14,252 nucleotides of DNA from Fidelibacterota bacterium (GTDB lineage Bacteria > Fidelibacterota > Marinisomatia > Marinisomatales > JABMOV01): the NCBI GenBank assembly GCA_046861395.1, contig JBHHUC010000057.1:1-14252 (forward strand), given 5' to 3'. Positions 6,782-14,252 of the stretch are shown here, in pieces. Numbering within the stretch: position 1 is the stretch's first letter; every line of letters starts with the position of its first letter. Under the pieces are notes generated by a model. It saw nothing but the letters and a program-made list of their open reading frames with translations, searched no databases and was not told where the DNA came from. Both the position numbers and the translations under genes were made by a program.

Positions 6782-7696
6782 ATGAACCAAAGACGACTTT
6801 TTCTTGCATTTTTTCTGTTGATCCTTGGCGGGTTCACGGCCTGGTCGTGTTCGGGAAAAAATTATACTACTTTCAACATTCCCGCATACGAACGCAGTTC
6901 GGAACAAACGGCGACGATGTATTTTGAATCGGTTGATCTGAAGGCGCTGCGTTCCTTTGCCTTCCGCAATGTGGCCATTATTGAATTCACCGTGGAATAT
7001 CTGGTGGACCTGCCCGATGCCACCTATCCCAAACTGACGGATGAGCTCTATGATTTATTCGTTGAATATCTGGAAGAGAACACTGGTCTGGCCGTCATTC
7101 CCCGGGAAAAGATTCAGAATAGTCCCATCTATATGCATTTACGAAAAAGGGATATTTTTGAACGTTGGGAAGAACCACGAGGTATATTCCGCAAAACATA
7201 TCAACGCAATCACCGCATCAGTGTCTCCTACCCGGCTTCCCACCTGGGCATTCTGGTCGATCCGCGCCAGGACCCGACCTTCAAATCCATTCGCAGTACC
7301 GATAATGAATGGTTTGAGCCCGGGGTCCTGTTTGATGTGGAAGCCGATGCCGCCCTGAAAGTGCACACGATCATTGATTTTGAACAGATCGGTAATAAAG
7401 GTCGGCTTATTATCACGGGATTGGAAGAGCCGCCGGTGGATTCCAAGATCGAAGTGCTCATCGGGTATTCCAAGACCCTGGCACCGGCCGTCGGTATTCC
7501 GTCGAAGGATGGGAAAAATTACATCTACCGCTACAACGACAATGCTGTTTTCCGGTTGAAGCGTCCCCTCGTTTCCTATGAAACTATCCGGTCCAATCGG
7601 AATGTATTCAATCTGGAAGAATTCGCCTTCCGGGCCCAGGAGATGTTCAGTGTCTATGCCGATATGTTCTCCCGTTACCTGGCCAAGCATATTTAA
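6782..7696 (+). CDS. Uncharacterised predicted lipoprotein (304 aa)
   Basis: Long ORF filling the gap between hypE and the permease. Signal peptide MNQRR plus a hydrophobic core and a lipobox-like AWS-C. The stop lies 3 bp before the next ATG. Confidence 0.8.
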   Translation: MNQRRLFLAFFLLILGGFTAWSCSGKNYTTFNIPAYERSSEQTATMYFESVDLKALRSFAFRNVAIIEFTVEYLVDLPDATYPKLTDELYDLFVEYLEENTGLAVIPREKIQNSPIYMHLRKRDIFERWEEPRGIFRKTYQRNHRISVSYPASHLGILVDPRQDPTFKSIRSTDNEWFEPGVLFDVEADAALKVHTIIDFEQIGNKGRLIITGLEEPPVDSKIEVLIGYSKTLAPAVGIPSKDGKNYIYRYNDNAVFRLKRPLVSYETIRSNRNVFNLEEFAFRAQEMFSVYADMFSRYLAKHI

Positions 7697-7699
7697 ACG

Positions 7700-8392
7700 A
7701 TGCATCCCCTGATTATAACAGCGATGTCCATCGGTTTCATCCATACGCTGATCGGACCGGATCATTATTTGCCTTTCATTGTCATGGGCAAAGCCCGGAA
7801 ATGGTCCCTGAAGAAAATTATCACGATCACCATTCTCTGCGGTATAGGCCATGTTCTGGGATCAGTGATTCTGGGATTTCTTGGTATTGCCCTGGGAATT
7901 GCGGCCGCCAAGCTGGAAATCATTGAAGGTTTCCGGGGCAACCTGGCCGCCTGGATGCTGACGGCCTTTGGCCTGGCCTACGCCGTCTGGGGACTGCGGG
8001 TCGGACTACGAGCCCGGGAGCATTCCCATTCCCATGATCATGACCACAAGGATCATCATCATTCCCACCATCATCTGGGAAGCCATACTCACCTCCATGG
8101 CGATATGAAATCATTGACGCCCTGGATGTTGTTTATCATATTTATCCTGGGACCGTGCGAACCGTTGATTCCCATTCTGATGTACCCGGCCGCTTCAGGC
8201 AGCTGGGGACTTCTTTTCGCAGTGACCATGGCATTTTCCGTAGTAACGATCGGAACCATGACTGCCATCGTTTGGATTATTTCCCGGGGCTGGGTAGTCC
8301 TCAATTTCAGCAAGATTGAACCATATATTCATACCATCGCCGGATTGATCATCGCCATCACGGGCTTTGCCATCCTCTTCTTAGGTCTGTAA
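7700..8392 (+). CDS. UreH/SodT-like nickel/cobalt permease (NiCoT/DsbD_2-related) with a His-rich loop
   Basis: TM1 motif GFIHTLIGPDHY, TM2 motif GIGH, central HSHSHDHDHKDHHHSHHHLGSHTHLH, GPCEP motif, about 6 hydrophobic segments, and hydrogenase context. Confidence 0.8.
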   Translation: MHPLIITAMSIGFIHTLIGPDHYLPFIVMGKARKWSLKKIITITILCGIGHVLGSVILGFLGIALGIAAAKLEIIEGFRGNLAAWMLTAFGLAYAVWGLRVGLRAREHSHSHDHDHKDHHHSHHHLGSHTHLHGDMKSLTPWMLFIIFILGPCEPLIPILMYPAASGSWGLLFAVTMAFSVVTIGTMTAIVWIISRGWVVLNFSKIEPYIHTIAGLIIAITGFAILFLGL

Positions 8393-8396
8393 CCTT

Positions 8397-8840
8397 ATGA
8401 CCACGGGGATGATGATCATCGCATTAATTCTGGTCAGTGCCGGCTACCTCATATCCATATATTTTTACCTGGCTACTCATAATAGGATTCCTACCGCCGT
8501 GCCCTGGTTACCGTCTCTGGTTCAGATCGGCGATTGCCGCTGTGAGGAACTGGTGGATACACCCTTCGGCCGGACGCTGGGGCGTTCCAATGCTTTCTGG
8601 GCCATGTGGTATTTTGTCTTTCTGGCAATCGCCATCATCAGTACGAACTTGAATAGCTGGCCGGGTGTCACAACCCTGTTTTTCATAACCCTGATCGCCT
8701 TTGCCCGCAGTATCTATCTGGCCTGGGCCCTGCTCCTCATGCGCGTGGTCTGCCGACCCTGTATCACCGCTCACATTATCAATCTGGGACTGATATTGAT
8801 TTTCGGATATCTTGAGTGGCCGAAACTCTTCCCAGGCTAA
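8397..8840 (+). CDS. Vitamin K epoxide reductase (VKOR) family membrane protein
   Basis: About 4 TM segments. Loop CRCEELVDTPFGRTLGRSN resembles the VKOR C..V..S/T...G.(P/S)N segment. CxxC active site (VVCRPC...H..N) lies at the start of the last TM. Confidence 0.8.
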   Translation: MTTGMMIIALILVSAGYLISIYFYLATHNRIPTAVPWLPSLVQIGDCRCEELVDTPFGRTLGRSNAFWAMWYFVFLAIAIISTNLNSWPGVTTLFFITLIAFARSIYLAWALLLMRVVCRPCITAHIINLGLILIFGYLEWPKLFPG

Positions 8841-9373
8841 TGTGTTTTTGTCTTTTTCACCCGTTTCCTGAATAGTGCCCGATATTTCGTGTCATCTCCG
8901 GGCCGGAAACCGCGAATCTTTTTCTTTATAATACCACCACCGGAAATATAGAACACCATGGGTAAAGAATAGAAGCCATAATGGGCTTTGCTGACGCCAT
9001 CCACATCAATGGCCAGATTGAGATTTGTGTTCAGTTGTTTTTTCAACTGCGAAAACGAATTTCGGTCACCATTGATTCCCACCAGAATAATATCCAAGTC
9101 TGCTGTCGGATATTCCTGAGTCAAGTCATCGATAAATCGCACCAGACGGCGACATACTGAACAACCGGGTGAAATGAAAATGAGGAGGATGGGGCGCGGC
9201 GGCCGGCTCCATTCCTTTTGTCCCCACCGCTTTCCGTCCAGACTTTCCACATAAAAGCTAGGCGCCGGTTTCCCTTCCTTGACCTCCTGCTTGGCATAGA
9301 AAATGACGGCATGGATAAAGAAACCGGCCAGCACCGAAATGATGACCAGGACAACGGTGCCTAGGACGGACAT
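8837..9373 (-). CDS. Membrane-anchored thioredoxin-like protein (TlpA/ResA/MauD-like, AhpC-TSA fold)
   Basis: N-terminal TM helix, GKPAPSFYVESLDGK motif, CxxC in FISPGCSVC and a cis-Pro loop (YSLPMVF). Its start overlaps the protease stop by 13 bp. Confidence 0.85.
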   Translation of the reverse strand: MSVLGTVVLVIISVLAGFFIHAVIFYAKQEVKEGKPAPSFYVESLDGKRWGQKEWSRPPRPILLIFISPGCSVCRRLVRFIDDLTQEYPTADLDIILVGINGDRNSFSQLKKQLNTNLNLAIDVDGVSKAHYGFYSLPMVFYISGGGIIKKKIRGFRPGDDTKYRALFRKRVKKTKTH

Positions 9374-9840
9374 GAAACGTCAACTCCCCACGCTTTGATC
9401 TGCTCCACTCCCTTCCGGGCTGCCACGGGAACCAGGGCCCGGACTTCATCTGTCAGACCTACACCCATATTCAGACTCACCGGTGGAATACCAATGAGGA
9501 TTAAATCTTCCGGCGTTTTTCCGTGAAGCCGGGCCAAAGATATCAATTCACTCAGGCCGACCTGATGGGAAGACATTTTCCGATAGATAAACCCCGGCAA
9601 TTCATCATTTTTATAGACATAGACCTGACGGTCATAGGTCTGGGGGATTATGGCATCAAAAACCAATAGCCGTTGGGCCGATTCCAAATAGTCCAGCAGG
9701 TATATTCCTTGGGTACCGCCATCGATCAATGTCACATTTTCAGGGAATTCAGCCAGGCGTTCCAGATAGCGGATTACTTCCACACCGAATCCCTCATCAC
9801 CGAACATGACGTTTCCGAGGCCGAGTACGTTAATACGCAC
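9361..9840 (-). CDS. hyaD: Hydrogenase maturation endopeptidase (HyaD/HybD/HoxM family)
   Basis: VLGLGNVMFGDEGFGV, DGGTQG, VFDAI and SSHQVGL motifs. GTG start with an AAGGAG Shine-Dalgarno. Confidence 0.96.
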   Translation of the reverse strand: MRINVLGLGNVMFGDEGFGVEVIRYLERLAEFPENVTLIDGGTQGIYLLDYLESAQRLLVFDAIIPQTYDRQVYVYKNDELPGFIYRKMSSHQVGLSELISLARLHGKTPEDLILIGIPPVSLNMGVGLTDEVRALVPVAARKGVEQIKAWGVDVSCPS

Positions 9841-10581: not shown

Positions 10582-12306
10582 TTATGAGATTTTGACAGAG
10601 GTGATTTCATTTCCATTGGCATCGAAGATATGTGATGCGCAGGCCAGACAGGGATCGAAGGAATGAATAGTCCGGAGGACTTCCAGCGGTTGCTCCGGAT
10701 CGGCCATGGGCGTGTTTTTCAACGCCGCTTCATAGGCACCGGACCGGCCCTTGCTGTCCCGCGGTGATGCATTCCAGGTAGAGGGAACGACGATCTGGTA
10801 ATCTTCGATCTTCTTGTTCTGGATATGAATCCAATGGCCCAGGGCGCCGCGCGGTGCTTCGGTATAACCGAAACCCTTGGCGTCGGCCGGCCACCGTTCC
10901 GGATCCCACATTTCATTATTGAACGTCTGATAATCGCCTTTTTTAACATTGGCAACCAGCTTGTCATAATAATGTTGCATGAATCCGGCGGTTTGTTTGC
11001 ATTCAATACCACGAGCGGCGGTTCGTCCCAGCGTCGAGAACAAGGCTTCGACGCCAACCCCCAGGGTCTTCAGGACACCGTTCACGGTTTCCACCAACAT
11101 CGGATTACCTTTGGCATACCCAATCAGAACACGGGCCAGAGGACCCACTTCCACCGGATTATCCTTCCAGCGTGGCGTTTTCAGCCAGCTGTATTTATTA
11201 TTTGTATCCAGGTAGTCGAAAGGCGGTTTAGGTCCCGTGTAATTGGGATGTGTTTCTCCTTCCCAGGGATGGAGACCCTTGTCATCACCCCCGGAATAGC
11301 TGTACCAGCTATTAGACACTTCTTCCAGAATTTCGGCATTGTCGCGGGGGTCCACATCATAGACCGTGGTTACATCCTTGTTCAGGATAGCGCCGCGAGG
11401 CCAGAGCAGGTTATTGGTGTCATGGACATCGTTTTCCGGAAAATCGCCATAGGACATATAATTCCCCAGGCCACCGCCCCACTGGGCCCAATCCTTGTAG
11501 AACCCGGCAATGGCAATTAAATCAGGGATGTAGACCTGATCGATAAAGGTCTGCGTCTGATCAATGATATCCTTGATTTTATTGAAGTGGGAAATATTAA
11601 TGGCCGTATCCTTGTTGGGATCGATGGCACAGGCCATACCGCCAACGGTGTAATTGGGATGAGGATTTTTCCCGCCGAAGATGGCATGGATTTTTACGAT
11701 TTCCTTCTGGAATTCCAATGCTTCGAGATAATGCGCCACAGCCATCAGGTTTGCTGCCGGCGGCAACTTGTAGGCCGAATGTCCCCAGTAAGCATTGGAA
11801 AAGATGCCCAGTTGGCCACTTTCAACGAATGAGGTAAGGCGGGCTTTCAAATCCTTGAAATAACCGACCGAAGACTTAGGCCAGGATGGTGATACCTTCT
11901 GGGCCAGTGCTGACGTCTCTTTCGGATCCGCACTAAGGGCACTGACAACATCCACCCAATCCAGGGCATGGAGATGATAGAAGTGGATCAAATGATCCTG
12001 GGTCTGTTGAGTCGCATTCATGAGATTCCGGATAATCCGGGCATTCTCTGGAATCGTGATACCCAGAGCATCTTCCACACAGCGCACCGATGCGATGGCA
12101 TGTACCGTGGTGCAGACACCACAAATACGCTGTGTAAAGGCCCAGGCGTCACGAGGATCGCGACCGCGGAGGATCAGTTCCAGTCCCCGCCACATGGTTC
12201 CGCTGCTGAAAGCATCGCTGATAACATTATTGTCATCCAATTTCGCTTCTATGCGAAGATGACCTTCAATCCGTGGGATGGGATCGACTACGATTCGTTT
12301 CGCCAT
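10582..12306 (-). CDS. hyaB: Group 1 (1d-like) [NiFe]-hydrogenase large subunit
   Basis: VDPIPRIEGH, L1 motif QRICGVCTTVH, HFYHLHALDWVD, GGKNPHP, EAPRGALGHW and VVPSTWN. L2 motif SFDPCLACASH is followed by a cleavable 15-aa tail. Confidence 0.98.
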   Translation of the reverse strand: MAKRIVVDPIPRIEGHLRIEAKLDDNNVISDAFSSGTMWRGLELILRGRDPRDAWAFTQRICGVCTTVHAIASVRCVEDALGITIPENARIIRNLMNATQQTQDHLIHFYHLHALDWVDVVSALSADPKETSALAQKVSPSWPKSSVGYFKDLKARLTSFVESGQLGIFSNAYWGHSAYKLPPAANLMAVAHYLEALEFQKEIVKIHAIFGGKNPHPNYTVGGMACAIDPNKDTAINISHFNKIKDIIDQTQTFIDQVYIPDLIAIAGFYKDWAQWGGGLGNYMSYGDFPENDVHDTNNLLWPRGAILNKDVTTVYDVDPRDNAEILEEVSNSWYSYSGGDDKGLHPWEGETHPNYTGPKPPFDYLDTNNKYSWLKTPRWKDNPVEVGPLARVLIGYAKGNPMLVETVNGVLKTLGVGVEALFSTLGRTAARGIECKQTAGFMQHYYDKLVANVKKGDYQTFNNEMWDPERWPADAKGFGYTEAPRGALGHWIHIQNKKIEDYQIVVPSTWNASPRDSKGRSGAYEAALKNTPMADPEQPLEVLRTIHSFDPCLACASHIFDANGNEITSVKIS

Positions 12307-12309
12307 GGA

Positions 12310-13392
12310 TTAATCCTCCTCTCCTGCTTCGGTTGTACTTGATCGTTTCAATGCCGTGCCGATGGCATGGGCCGCCGCTCCGACGGCTGCCGCACCCACG
12401 GCCACTTTACCGATGGTGTTGGCGTTGCTGTCCGTACCCAAAAAGTCCACGGAAGCCAGCTTGGAATAGAACGGTCCGTTGTCCCAGAAATTGGGTTCAG
12501 AACAGCCCAGGCAGGGATGACCGGATCCGATGGGAAAACTGGTTCCTTCATTCCATTGAATCTTGGAACAGGCATTATAGGTTGTCGGTCCTTTGCAGCC
12601 CATTTTATAGAGGCACCAGCCTTTTTGGGCGGCGGGACTGTCAAAGTCTTCCACAAACATTCCGGCATCGAAGAAGGGCCGACGGTAACATTTGTCGTGA
12701 ATGCGAGTCCCGTAAAAGGCCTTGGGACGTCCCAGTCGATCCAGCTCCGGTAATTCACCAAAGGTCAGCACATGAGTAATGACACCGGTCATGACTTCGG
12801 CAATGGGGGGACAGCCGGGGACGTTGACAATCGGTTTATCTTTGATAATCTTGTGGATGGGTTGTGAGCCGGACGGATTGGGTTTGGCATTTTGCACGCA
12901 GCCAAAGGACGCACAGGAGCCCCAGGCAATAATTGCCATGGCATCTTCAGCCGTTTCCTTCAGGACATTCAGGAATGAATCGCCACCGACCATGCAGTAG
13001 ACACCATCATCCTTCACGGAAGCATTTCCTTCCACGGCCAGGATGAATTTCCCTTTGTACTCCTTCATGATCTGTCTGCGCACCGCTTCCAGTTGATGAC
13101 CGGCGGCGGCACTCAGGGTCTCATCGTAGTCCAGGGAAATCATATTCAAGACAATGTCGGCCACAACGGGATGGGACGACCGAATGAATGATTCGCTGCA
13201 GCAGGTACATTCCTGTCCATGCAACCAGATGACGGGAATCCGCGGTTTGGTTTCCATGGCTTTGACTATTCTGGGAACCATGGAAGCCGATACTCCGAGA
13301 TAGACTGACATGAGACTGCAGAATTTCATAAAATCGCGGCGTGAAACTCCCCGATCTTCGAATACCTCCATGAAGGATTTTTGTTCTGCCAT
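12310..13392 (-). CDS. hyaA: [NiFe]-hydrogenase small subunit with Tat signal, six-Cys proximal cluster signature and C-terminal membrane anchor
   Basis: Twin-arginine motif [50 protein letters not shown] and [12 protein letters not shown] motifs. Hydrophobic C-tail with His. Confidence 0.98.
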
Positions 13393-13418: not shown

Positions 13419-13973
13419 TTATTGTACATTTTGTTTTATTAAATATTCGCATTGTCCGTGGAGGGAGACATTCAGTCCGCAATCGGAACCATAGGTGCCA
13501 TTGCAGACCATACAGATCAATTCGATATCTTCTGTTTTCATGACACTACTCTGAATATATTTATCCAATAGTTTTTTCAGCATGACCAGTTCTTCGTCAC
13601 TGAACGTGTCTAGGATATTTTTCATGTGATTATTCCGTGACCGGTAATAGTGATCGATCAGCTCTGATCCCTGGACGGACAGGGAAACAATTGTCGCCCG
13701 GCGGTCTTTGGGATTTACCCGCCGATTGACCAGCTTCAGTGCATGGAGCCGGTCGATACTCTTGCTGGTGGCGGCCCGGCTGATATCCAGGATATCGGCA
13801 AACTGACTGCCTGACATGGGGCCATAATTATACAGGATCTTGAGAATGGAAATCTGCGATGGCGAAAGATGATCAGGATAAACATCTTCGATGATTTCTT
13901 TTTCTAGAATTTCGGATAAATATTGAGCGATGATTCGGAAATCTTTATTGATATGGGCTAATTCGGGATGTAT
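13419..13973 (-). CDS. MarR-family transcriptional regulator with a C-terminal C-x2-C-x7-C-x9-C tail; probable non-canonical ATA start (184 aa)
   Basis: LSPSQISILKIL...GPMSGSQFADILDISRAATSKSIDRL...NPKDRR is the MarR winged-helix pattern. The frame stays open 52 codons upstream of the ATG at 13817, and AGGAGG (13980-13985) sits 6 nt before ATA (13973). Confidence 0.9.
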   Translation of the reverse strand: MHPELAHINKDFRIIAQYLSEILEKEIIEDVYPDHLSPSQISILKILYNYGPMSGSQFADILDISRAATSKSIDRLHALKLVNRRVNPKDRRATIVSLSVQGSELIDHYYRSRNNHMKNILDTFSDEELVMLKKLLDKYIQSSVMKTEDIELICMVCNGTYGSDCGLNVSLHGQCEYLIKQNVQ

Positions 13974-13986
13974 CGTTAACCTCCTG

Positions 13987-14009
13987 TATTATTAACCGGG
14001 TTAATAATA
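13987..14009. promoter_or_regulatory. Perfect 11-1-11 inverted repeat, putative MarR operator
   Basis: TATTATTAACC-G-GGTTAATAATA lies directly upstream of the marR Shine-Dalgarno and overlaps the predicted -10 box. Confidence 0.75.
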
Positions 14010-14032
14010 AGTAGAATTAATTAAAAATACAA
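14004..14032 (-). promoter_or_regulatory. Predicted sigma70-type promoter of the marR-hydrogenase operon
   Basis: On the - strand: TTGTAT (14032-14027), a 17-nt spacer, then TATTAT (14009-14004). Confidence 0.55.
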
Positions 14033-14134
14033 GTCATCAATTAATAATAGCGGAAAAAAGTAAAATATCGATCATGCAATAATTCGGATTGGGAGCATGA
14101 GCTAATAGTCTTAATTTCACCGCGTTTAATTGTT

Positions 14135-14207
14135 GGCTCGATAGCTCAGTCGGTAGAGCAGAGGCCTGAAAAGCCTTGTGTCGCTGGTTCGATTCCGGCT
14201 CGAGCCA
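14135..14207 (+). tRNA. tRNA-Phe (GAA), CCA not encoded
   Basis: Acceptor stem GGCTCGA/TCGAGCC, D arm GCTC-AGTCGGTA-GAGC, anticodon arm GAGGC-CTGAAAA-GCCTT with GAA at 14168-14170, T arm GCTGG-TTCGATT-CCGGC and discriminator A14207. Confidence 0.98.
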
Positions 14208-14225
14208 CTTTAGTTTAAACTGGTT

Positions 14226-14241: not shown

Positions 14242-14252
14242 GCTCGAACCAC

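Follow-up and report, generated by a model that had tools for sequence, protein, structure and literature searches.

What does a MarR-family regulator with a cysteine-rich C-terminus do at the head of a [NiFe] hydrogenase operon? The question is raised by a 14,252-nt stretch of DNA, hereafter the window (contig C119; GenBank JBHHUC010000057.1), from the 2.37-Mb, 94% complete genome of a bacterium of the Fidelibacterota (Marinimicrobia), in whose assembly a 16S gene was not found. To our knowledge, how uncultured Marinimicrobia and sulfate-reducing Acidobacteriota switch their energy metabolism between oxic and anoxic conditions is an open question, and a sensor candidate that is small, soluble and paired with a defined operator would make it testable in vitro or with an E. 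coli reporter, without a culture. A sequence-only reading of the window had proposed that the regulator senses redox or metal status through its cysteines and gates the operon through a palindrome over its promoter. The features concerned are as follows.

13419..13973, minus strand: MarR-family regulator (184 aa, P0001), whose gene opens the operon; assigned from profile matches, fold and orthologues
13449..13514, minus strand: four-Cys tail C154-x2-C157-x7-C165-x9-C175, proposed metal or Fe-S site; from sequence conservation
13971..13973, minus strand: putative non-AUG start codon, ATA; from Shine-Dalgarno distance, relatives and substitution pattern
13976..13988, no strand: downstream operator box, over the ribosome-binding site; single-box score 9.3
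13980..13985, minus strand: Shine-Dalgarno sequence AGGAGG, inside the downstream operator box and 6 nt before ATA
13992..14004, no strand: central operator box TTAA-n5-TTAA, core of the 11-1-11 palindrome, covering the last part of the -10 box and the start site, which is expected near 13997
14008..14020, no strand: weak upstream operator box, in the -35/-10 spacer
14004..14032, minus strand: putative sigma-70 promoter (-35 at 14027-14032, 17-nt spacer, -10 at 14004-14009)
12310..13392, minus strand: [NiFe] hydrogenase small subunit; carries a Tat signal and the two supernumerary Cys (TIGR00391, TIGR01409)
10582..12306, minus strand: [NiFe] hydrogenase large subunit; no second one was found in the genome
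9877..10569, minus strand: hydrogenase b-type cytochrome subunit (TIGR02125, above cut-off)
9361..9840, minus strand: hydrogenase maturation protease (TIGR00072, above cut-off)
8837..9373, minus strand: thioredoxin-like membrane protein; the operon probably ends with its gene (ResA-like match at E 1e-16, below cut-off)

The regulator gene and the operon behind it

The regulator is a MarR protein by fold that falls outside every named subfamily. The Pfam MarR model PF01047 matches it with 47 bits (cut-off 24.6; E 2.3e-12), and its structural model (pLDDT 89.6), in which N-terminal and C-terminal dimerisation helices flank a winged-helix domain, superposes on 2rdp_A with a Z score of 16.2 (rmsd 2.3, 138 aligned residues; VIA). 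The wing carries a DRR motif whose residues D90, R91 and R92 are each kept in at least 90% of alignment A1, a set of 105 rows picked by the Cys motif, so that the Cys invariance of this alignment is circular. None of the 21 NCBIfam models for named MarR equivalogs (SlyA, OhrR, AdcR, HpaR, MarR and others) reaches its cut-off, the best match giving 44 bits against 220. Orthologues with 69-70% identity across residues 1-183 are present in three genomes of the family. Among the homologues, P0160, P0162 and P0183 are labelled Candidatus Marinimicrobia/Neomarinimicrobiota, and the close homologue P0181 is labelled Simkaniaceae; a search of a plasmid collection with P0072 returned no match. A description of the subfamily was not found in the literature searched, mainly the main texts of open papers, and the accessible portion of the Caldithrix genome paper does not mention MarR.

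As had been proposed, the gene lies just before the hydrogenase on the same strand: 26 nt on the minus strand separate its stop codon from the ATG of the small subunit. The range first assigned to it, 13419..14032, contains a real gene but also takes in the promoter, and the coding sequence is better placed at 13419-13973. The open frame extends over 13419-13988 with its first ATG at 13817, and the N-terminus of the coding sequence offers no ATG, GTG or TTG. Three relatives have ATT in place of the ATA codon at the same position, and one public record (P0183) is annotated from the equivalent position. Codons 2-52 differ from those of three relatives by 22-27 synonymous and 11-12 amino-acid-changing substitutions, which shows that this upstream stretch is translated. 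We therefore rejected a start at ATG 13817, which would give a 132-aa protein without helix 1 and with a truncated winged helix and would leave codons under purifying selection outside the gene. An assembly error was likewise rejected, as the ATA codon is unchanged in four run assemblies, all made from a single hydrothermal-vent sample, possibly the window's source. No RNA data set was among those listed as containing this DNA. The phylum set used throughout comprises 40 regulator copies, 39 from a genome search plus that of G030. Within it, 28 members have an ATG, GTG or TTG in a 25-codon stretch around the aligned N-terminus and 12 have none; in seven of these 12, an ATH codon follows a Shine-Dalgarno match at least four bases long. 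The non-AUG start probably serves to keep translation of the autorepressor weak, and it causes gene callers to shorten these proteins (records of 132-157 aa).

From the regulator to the thioredoxin-like gene, which occupies the same place in many relatives, the successive gaps are 26, 3, 12, 36 and -13 nt. The best solved match of the small subunit is HoxK (E 2e-146), and both supernumerary cysteines, C19 and C120, are aligned. By these small-subunit cysteines the enzyme is classed as a six-Cys O2-tolerant membrane-bound [NiFe] hydrogenase, the type being defined by C19 and C120 in the accessible part of PMC11023054, where the six-Cys cluster is not treated as the sole determinant of O2 tolerance. 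Group 1d O2-tolerant hydrogenases (HoxKG, E. coli Hyd-1) are alike in their small, large and cytochrome b subunits and in C19/C120; unlike theirs, the large subunit of the window carries Gln at position E73, with 3myr_B as its best solved match. The Aquifex large subunit likewise has Gln there, according to the same excerpt (PMC11023054).

Several other genes of the window lie on the plus strand. A VKOR-like membrane protein (PF07884, 8397-8840) converges with the thioredoxin-like gene, and such a VKOR/thioredoxin-like pair, or VKOR alone, stands behind many group 1 operons of the phylum, regulator-less ones included. Genes that we take, from their motifs, to be hyp genes also converge on the hydrogenase operon. 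Between hypE and a His-rich transporter-like gene lies a 304-aa probable lipoprotein (6782-7696) with no Pfam or NCBIfam match, kept in five loci; the His-rich membrane protein (7700-8392) has weak nickel/cobalt transporter matches and is conserved beside hyp genes.

A tandem operator over the shared promoter

The 11-1-11 palindrome previously noted over the promoter is perfect at 13987-14009 and is the only such site in the genome at up to three mismatches; it is one of 19 perfect inverted repeats with arms of at least 11 nt listed for the 2.37 Mb (three of them listed twice). It forms the centre of three boxes at a 16-bp period. A further half-site suggested at 14040-14049 is present as a 10-mer but is not a box (best score -2.8; 15 occurrences in the genome), the true extra boxes being those at 13976-13988 and, weaker, at 14008-14020. 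The -10/-35 pair was not listed by a consensus scanner, but the -10 predicted earlier gains support from conservation in relatives: among the 35 phylum members with a tandem box, 28 have a TTG at a spacing of 17/18 nt, and in 27 the first base of the box is also the last of a TAnnnT hexamer.

Conservation of the palindrome is borne out in the phylum and beyond. The tandem TTAA-n5-TTAA-n3-TTAA-n5-TTAA, at no more than three mismatches of 16, precedes 30 of the 40 phylum members, against 0.97 in dinucleotide shuffles and 0-13 members for 11 other spacings, and it recurs in Acidobacteriota and Gemmatimonadota. A matrix built from 37 sites, the window's own site being left out, ranks the window tandems first (25.9) and second (20.9, most of which comes from the central box) in the genome, the next tandem scoring 14.7; the central box is also the best single box of the genome (16.7 versus 12.7 for the next). 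In-sample, 35 of the 40 phylum members score at least 12, and the five below this value include two copies inside or behind another operon. Out of sample, a box was found before 33 of 81 members in Acidobacteriota/Gemmatimonadota, compared with 0.33 in shuffles and 14 of 867 other ORFs; at score 10 none was found before the remaining 48. The 16-bp period occurs in 17 of the 81, other periods between 14 and 21 in one at most.

Upstream of 20 small-subunit genes in loci selected as having no regulator beside them (L086-L105) the best tandem reached only 8.5; three of these loci are uninformative (L091, with the regulator across a contig break; L096, with no upstream DNA; L101, with a decayed copy). 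Taken together with the position of the boxes over the -10 box, start site and ribosome-binding site, which argues for a repressor of the shared promoter, the conserved boxes make it very probable that the regulator binds them and represses its own promoter, which would be that of the hydrogenase operon as well. The autorepression proposed earlier is thus well supported by comparative evidence.

Other arrangements were considered and set aside. A wider regulon in the window's genome was rejected at the level of tandems, the next one scoring 14.7 against 25.9; 23 other single boxes score 11-12.7. Control at a distance was rejected as well, no tandem being present before the hydrogenases of five genomes that carry the regulator elsewhere (G017, G042, G053, G148, G080). 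Consensus sites for FNR, Crp, NikR and Fur were used, together with one for Rex taken from an excerpt of PMC5317091. Replacement of the regulator by FNR, Crp or Rex gave no consistent box in the 20 regulator-less operons, only two one-mismatch matches, and no convincing FNR, Crp, Rex, SurR or sigma-54 site was seen in the window promoter, where the short SurR motif matches with one mismatch and the long one with at least three.

Operons associated with the regulator

Among 301 genomes of the phylum, 34 encode the regulator and 63 a group 1 large subunit: 32 have both, two only the regulator and 31 only the hydrogenase. The large subunit is thus found in 32 of 34 genomes with the regulator and 31 of 267 without it, genomes that are kin and not independent samples. 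The 31 hydrogenase-bearing genomes without the regulator indicate that it is dispensable; a search for missed copies in five hydrogenase-positive genomes turned up only ordinary MarRs. One decayed copy (G016, L101:1-430) stands before a six-Cys small subunit, its helix-turn-helix gone, its first Cys lost and its tail interrupted by an in-frame stop.

Hydrogenase synteny is conserved, a small-subunit gene following the regulator in 30 of the 40 phylum copies. The median gap is 40 nt, with two members at 324 and 683 nt. Fifteen of these 30 operons encode the six-Cys type with cytochrome b, nine have a standard proximal cluster and HybA/HybB-like genes in a HybO-A-B-C-like arrangement, and six are of the NiFeSe type, with a TGA in the large subunit. 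The proposal of an O2-tolerant-type hydrogenase therefore holds for the window enzyme, which has both supernumerary cysteines, but not for the family link, which is not specific to that type. In five loci with [NiFeSe]-type hydrogenases (L074, L075, L080, L081, L082), one fused or two cytochrome b genes follow.

A further eight of the 40 copies precede HybA-like and NrfD genes, followed in seven by a class III-like multihaem cytochrome. At L053, L054, L059, L060, L061 and L067, operons for a HybA-like ferredoxin, NrfD and a secreted multihaem cytochrome lie under the regulator without a hydrogenase, near cytochrome c maturation or rnf-like genes; L059 has two in tandem. The last two copies, which have no box, stand tail to tail with an Fe/Mn superoxide dismutase gene (L061:9221-9817 and L083:1559-2137), followed at L061 by a peroxiredoxin and a Fur-family gene.

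The second branch, in Acidobacteriota and Gemmatimonadota, was surveyed in neighbourhoods of up to 7 kb around the best 80 of 147 loci, found with a 10-row subfamily alignment as query. By raw count, 62 of the best 80 contain Hdr, Mvh-type hydrogenase, Apr or hyp genes and 18 contain no gene of this redox set; HdrA-like genes occur in 46, VhuG/MvhG-like in 34, large subunits in 31 and AprA in 11. Many Acidobacteriota copies precede hyp genes. The 11 AprA loci have neither a hydrogenase nor a hyp gene in the locus, and in at least eight of them aprBA directly follows the regulator. In Gemmatimonadota L126, L147, L165, L167, L170, L171, L179 and L183, regulator and box precede a PorV-like cluster and not redox genes; the first gene of the cluster matched GTPase Era, in L126, L147 and others the cluster extends up to prfB, and L165 and L170 have an Mvh-type hydrogenase upstream of the regulator.

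In a sister clade of 12 loci, four face HydF and a radical SAM gene tail to tail, and eight (L186-L193, with a Cys3His tail) precede glycosyltransferases; by eye, these eight have an upstream palindrome of their own, CTATC-n7-GATAG.

The conserved unit of regulator, operator and operon is real by comparison of these loci. We consider it highly probable that the regulator is an autorepressor of Fe-S-rich respiratory operons for low oxygen, and its operator lets regulons be predicted in metagenomes.

The cysteine tail and the signal it may carry

The tail had been described as C-x2-C-x7-C-x9-C, and this spacing was confirmed. Residues 154, 157, 165 and 175 are the only cysteines of the protein, with none in residues 1-153, and they lie in a 22-residue segment directly after the last dimerisation helix. 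In a census of 152 proteins (150 best matches, P0001 and P0002), 115 have four cysteines at the same or near spacing, 14 have three, one has two and 22, together mostly ordinary, fused or cut MarRs, have none. The four cysteines also proved conserved among homologues: 38 of the 40 phylum members fit C-x2-C-x7-C-x8/10-C, one exception having a longer spacer and the other being cut by a contig end and continued on the next contig, and so do 79 of 81 members in Acidobacteriota/Gemmatimonadota, a set collected by patterns in the DNA-binding helix, where one exception is cut and the other has x8. The histidine of the tail, noted earlier beside the four cysteines, did not stand up as a ligand, as a His three residues before the fourth Cys occurs in only two of 39 phylum members. 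Eleven of the 14 three-Cys proteins carry a His four residues after the second Cys, the position at which L194-L197 have a Cys. This exchange of Cys and His at one place in the sister clade keeps four potential ligands, which speaks more for a metal site with four ligands than for a bare disulfide, and we judge that the tail probably binds a metal cofactor through four ligands.

Database searches with the tail returned little. Its Cys spacing occurs in none of the Fe-S families searched in Pfam or PDB, and the best match to PDB sequences has an E of 0.18. A separate model of the tail has a pLDDT of 65.5, below 60 over the cysteines, and its best structural match a Z of 3.0; models of metal sites made without the cofactor are often poor. 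Foldseek matches reach the MarR core only, and an Atlas search with the tail (score 0.78) gave at best a lead.

As to the signal, the targets are Fe-S- and haem-rich, of low potential, several nickel-free and several oxygen-sensitive, which argues for oxygen or redox rather than nickel; NiFeSe hydrogenase, Hdr-Mvh and Apr are oxygen-sensitive enzymes. The window's genome encodes haem-copper oxidases; NikR and Rex have no match in it at 94% completeness, and its two Crp-family proteins have zero and one Cys and lack the FNR-type Cys cluster. One sister subgroup speaks against an oxygen- or redox-sensing Fe-S site, eight of the 12 loci preceding glycosyltransferases, which are not redox genes. 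On balance we give an oxygen- or redox-labile Fe-S switch in the tail about an even chance. In such a mechanism the repressor, presumably a dimer and made at a low level from its non-AUG start, would sit on two or three TTAA-n5-TTAA boxes at the 16-bp period and hold down the whole hydrogenase operon; at low oxygen an intact, reduced cluster would make the protein leave the DNA, allowing expression of the respiratory operon, and the oxidised or cluster-free form would repress. The direction of the switch is suggested only by the kind of genes controlled.

The strongest competitor keeps the same repressor and operator and has the tail bind a single Zn(II); the site would be structural, or it would be a zinc-thiolate redox switch that oxidants or sulfane sulfur release. 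Zinc is commonly bound by C-x2-C and Cys3His sets, and the C-x2-C start of the tail and its Cys3His variant would fit tetrahedral zinc. The weak Pfam matches of the tail are mostly to zinc-finger models (best E 0.0008; five of 38 members), zinc-ribbon and LIM models each matching five of 38 tails, but any Cys-rich peptide gives matches of this kind. The sister subgroup before non-redox genes would also suit zinc; the neighbours elsewhere are respiratory Fe-S operons and not zinc transporters. The characterised metal-sensing MarRs do bind Zn, AdcR/ZitR being the only ones named in the available part of a 2024 review, and they share with the mechanism proposed here a MarR scaffold whose metal site gates DNA binding; yet their site lies between helices 1 and 2 and not in a tail, and their targets are zinc-uptake genes (PMC11672702). 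Moreover, the AdcR model gives the window regulator 33 bits against a cut-off of 175, and Fe-S sites often resemble Zn sites (PMC12343034, in excerpt). We regard zinc as a rather unlikely ligand.

An Fe-S tail might instead report iron or cluster supply, the cluster-free protein shutting iron-costly operons during iron shortage. Fe-S or haem is indeed abundant in all targets, one of which is an O2-tolerant-type enzyme with no need of a shut-off by oxygen. Iron-uptake or cluster-assembly genes are nevertheless missing from the recurring neighbours, and the window's genome (G000) has the tandem box at this promoter alone, which leaves iron supply improbable.

A metal-free thiol-disulfide switch answering oxidants or polysulfide has a precedent in SurR of Thermococcales, a Cys-based redox switch for hydrogenase and sulfur-respiration genes that acts through a CxxC disulfide (PMC12162507, as available in part). 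The tail has a C-x2-C motif, the Apr and Hdr neighbours tie the family to sulfur chemistry, and the thioredoxin-like and VKOR-like genes might belong to such a switch. These two proteins, however, look membrane-bound and stand behind only some hydrogenase operons, and the swap of His for Cys keeps four potential ligands for which a disulfide has no need. SurR itself, in the same source, is ArsR-related, with two winged-helix domains, an N-terminal CxxC, a global regulon and the motif GTT-n3-AAC(-n5-GTT), whereas the window regulator has a MarR fold, no Cys in its DNA-binding domain and a local tandem operator of the inverse form, AAC-n3-GTT. We regard a bare disulfide as quite improbable.

Nickel, raised earlier as a possible signal that would couple hydrogenase synthesis to nickel supply, has in its favour the [NiFe] enzymes that make up most phylum targets, the lack of a NikR match and the hyp genes behind many Acidobacteriota copies, but at least eight phylum operons and the 11 AprBA loci have no [NiFe] enzyme in operon or locus, no box was found before the hyp and nickel-transporter-like genes of the window, and the tail His is not conserved; a nickel sensor is therefore very improbable. 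Equally improbable is a regulator that controls only itself or an unrelated target, the hydrogenase genes having their own promoter: co-transcription is deduced and two members have the long gaps given above, but the window gap is 26 nt, no minus-strand promoter or terminator match lies between or inside the regulator and small-subunit genes, and the gene order is the same across three hydrogenase types and other modules.

Returning to the oxygen- or redox-labile Fe-S switch, two known proteins resemble it in part. ChlR of Synechocystis PCC 6803 and Synechococcus PCC 7002 is a MarR-type regulator of low-oxygen genes with an oxygen-labile [4Fe-4S] cluster; it is an activator of ~135 aa with proposed N-terminal ligands Cys18 and Cys25 and one cluster per dimer (PMC4500134, in the part available). 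In contrast, the window regulator lacks the N-terminal Cys pair, has the C-terminal four-Cys tail instead, and has boxes that overlap the promoter. ArnR of Corynebacterium glutamicum combines a winged helix, a dimerisation helix and a C-terminal Cys sensor with a [4Fe-4S] cluster and, as proposed for the window regulator, represses an anaerobic respiratory operon. As described in the accessible text of PMC12343034, its sensor domain is larger and has three cysteines (179, 193 and 223; x13, x29), against 22 residues with four cysteines spaced x2, x7 and x9 in the window tail; ArnR is confined to Actinobacteria, and its DNA binding requires the cluster and is lost with NO, so that ArnR represses with the cluster bound, opposite to the direction proposed here. 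Since the redox-Cys regulator SurR and the MarR-type Fe-S protein ChlR were already known, the mode of hydrogenase control, for which the sequence-only reading knew no precedent, is new in its parts and not in principle. If the tail does hold a cluster, both the Fe-S motif and this route of hydrogenase control would be new.

More tentatively, and at somewhat less than an even chance, the family might be a widespread class of portable Fe-S redox sensor, composed of a MarR domain, the 22-residue tail and a cross-phylum tandem operator and placed before whichever low-potential module a lineage possesses. The modules served would be three kinds of uptake hydrogenase, HybA/NrfD/multihaem conduits, Hdr-Mvh bifurcation and AprBA sulfate reduction. 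Were this so, uncultured facultative lineages that lack a Cys-bearing FNR or Rex would have in it their oxygen/redox sensor, and it may read the reduction state made by its own target, amounting to indirect sensing of H2 by feedback.

At the edge of the window, a tRNA-Phe gene (14135-14208) is divergent from the regulator; behind it lie a short hairpin and, at the end of the contig, a second, partial copy of the tRNA 3' end (14198-14208 and 14242-14252). Assemblies branch here, as at an integration site or repeat.
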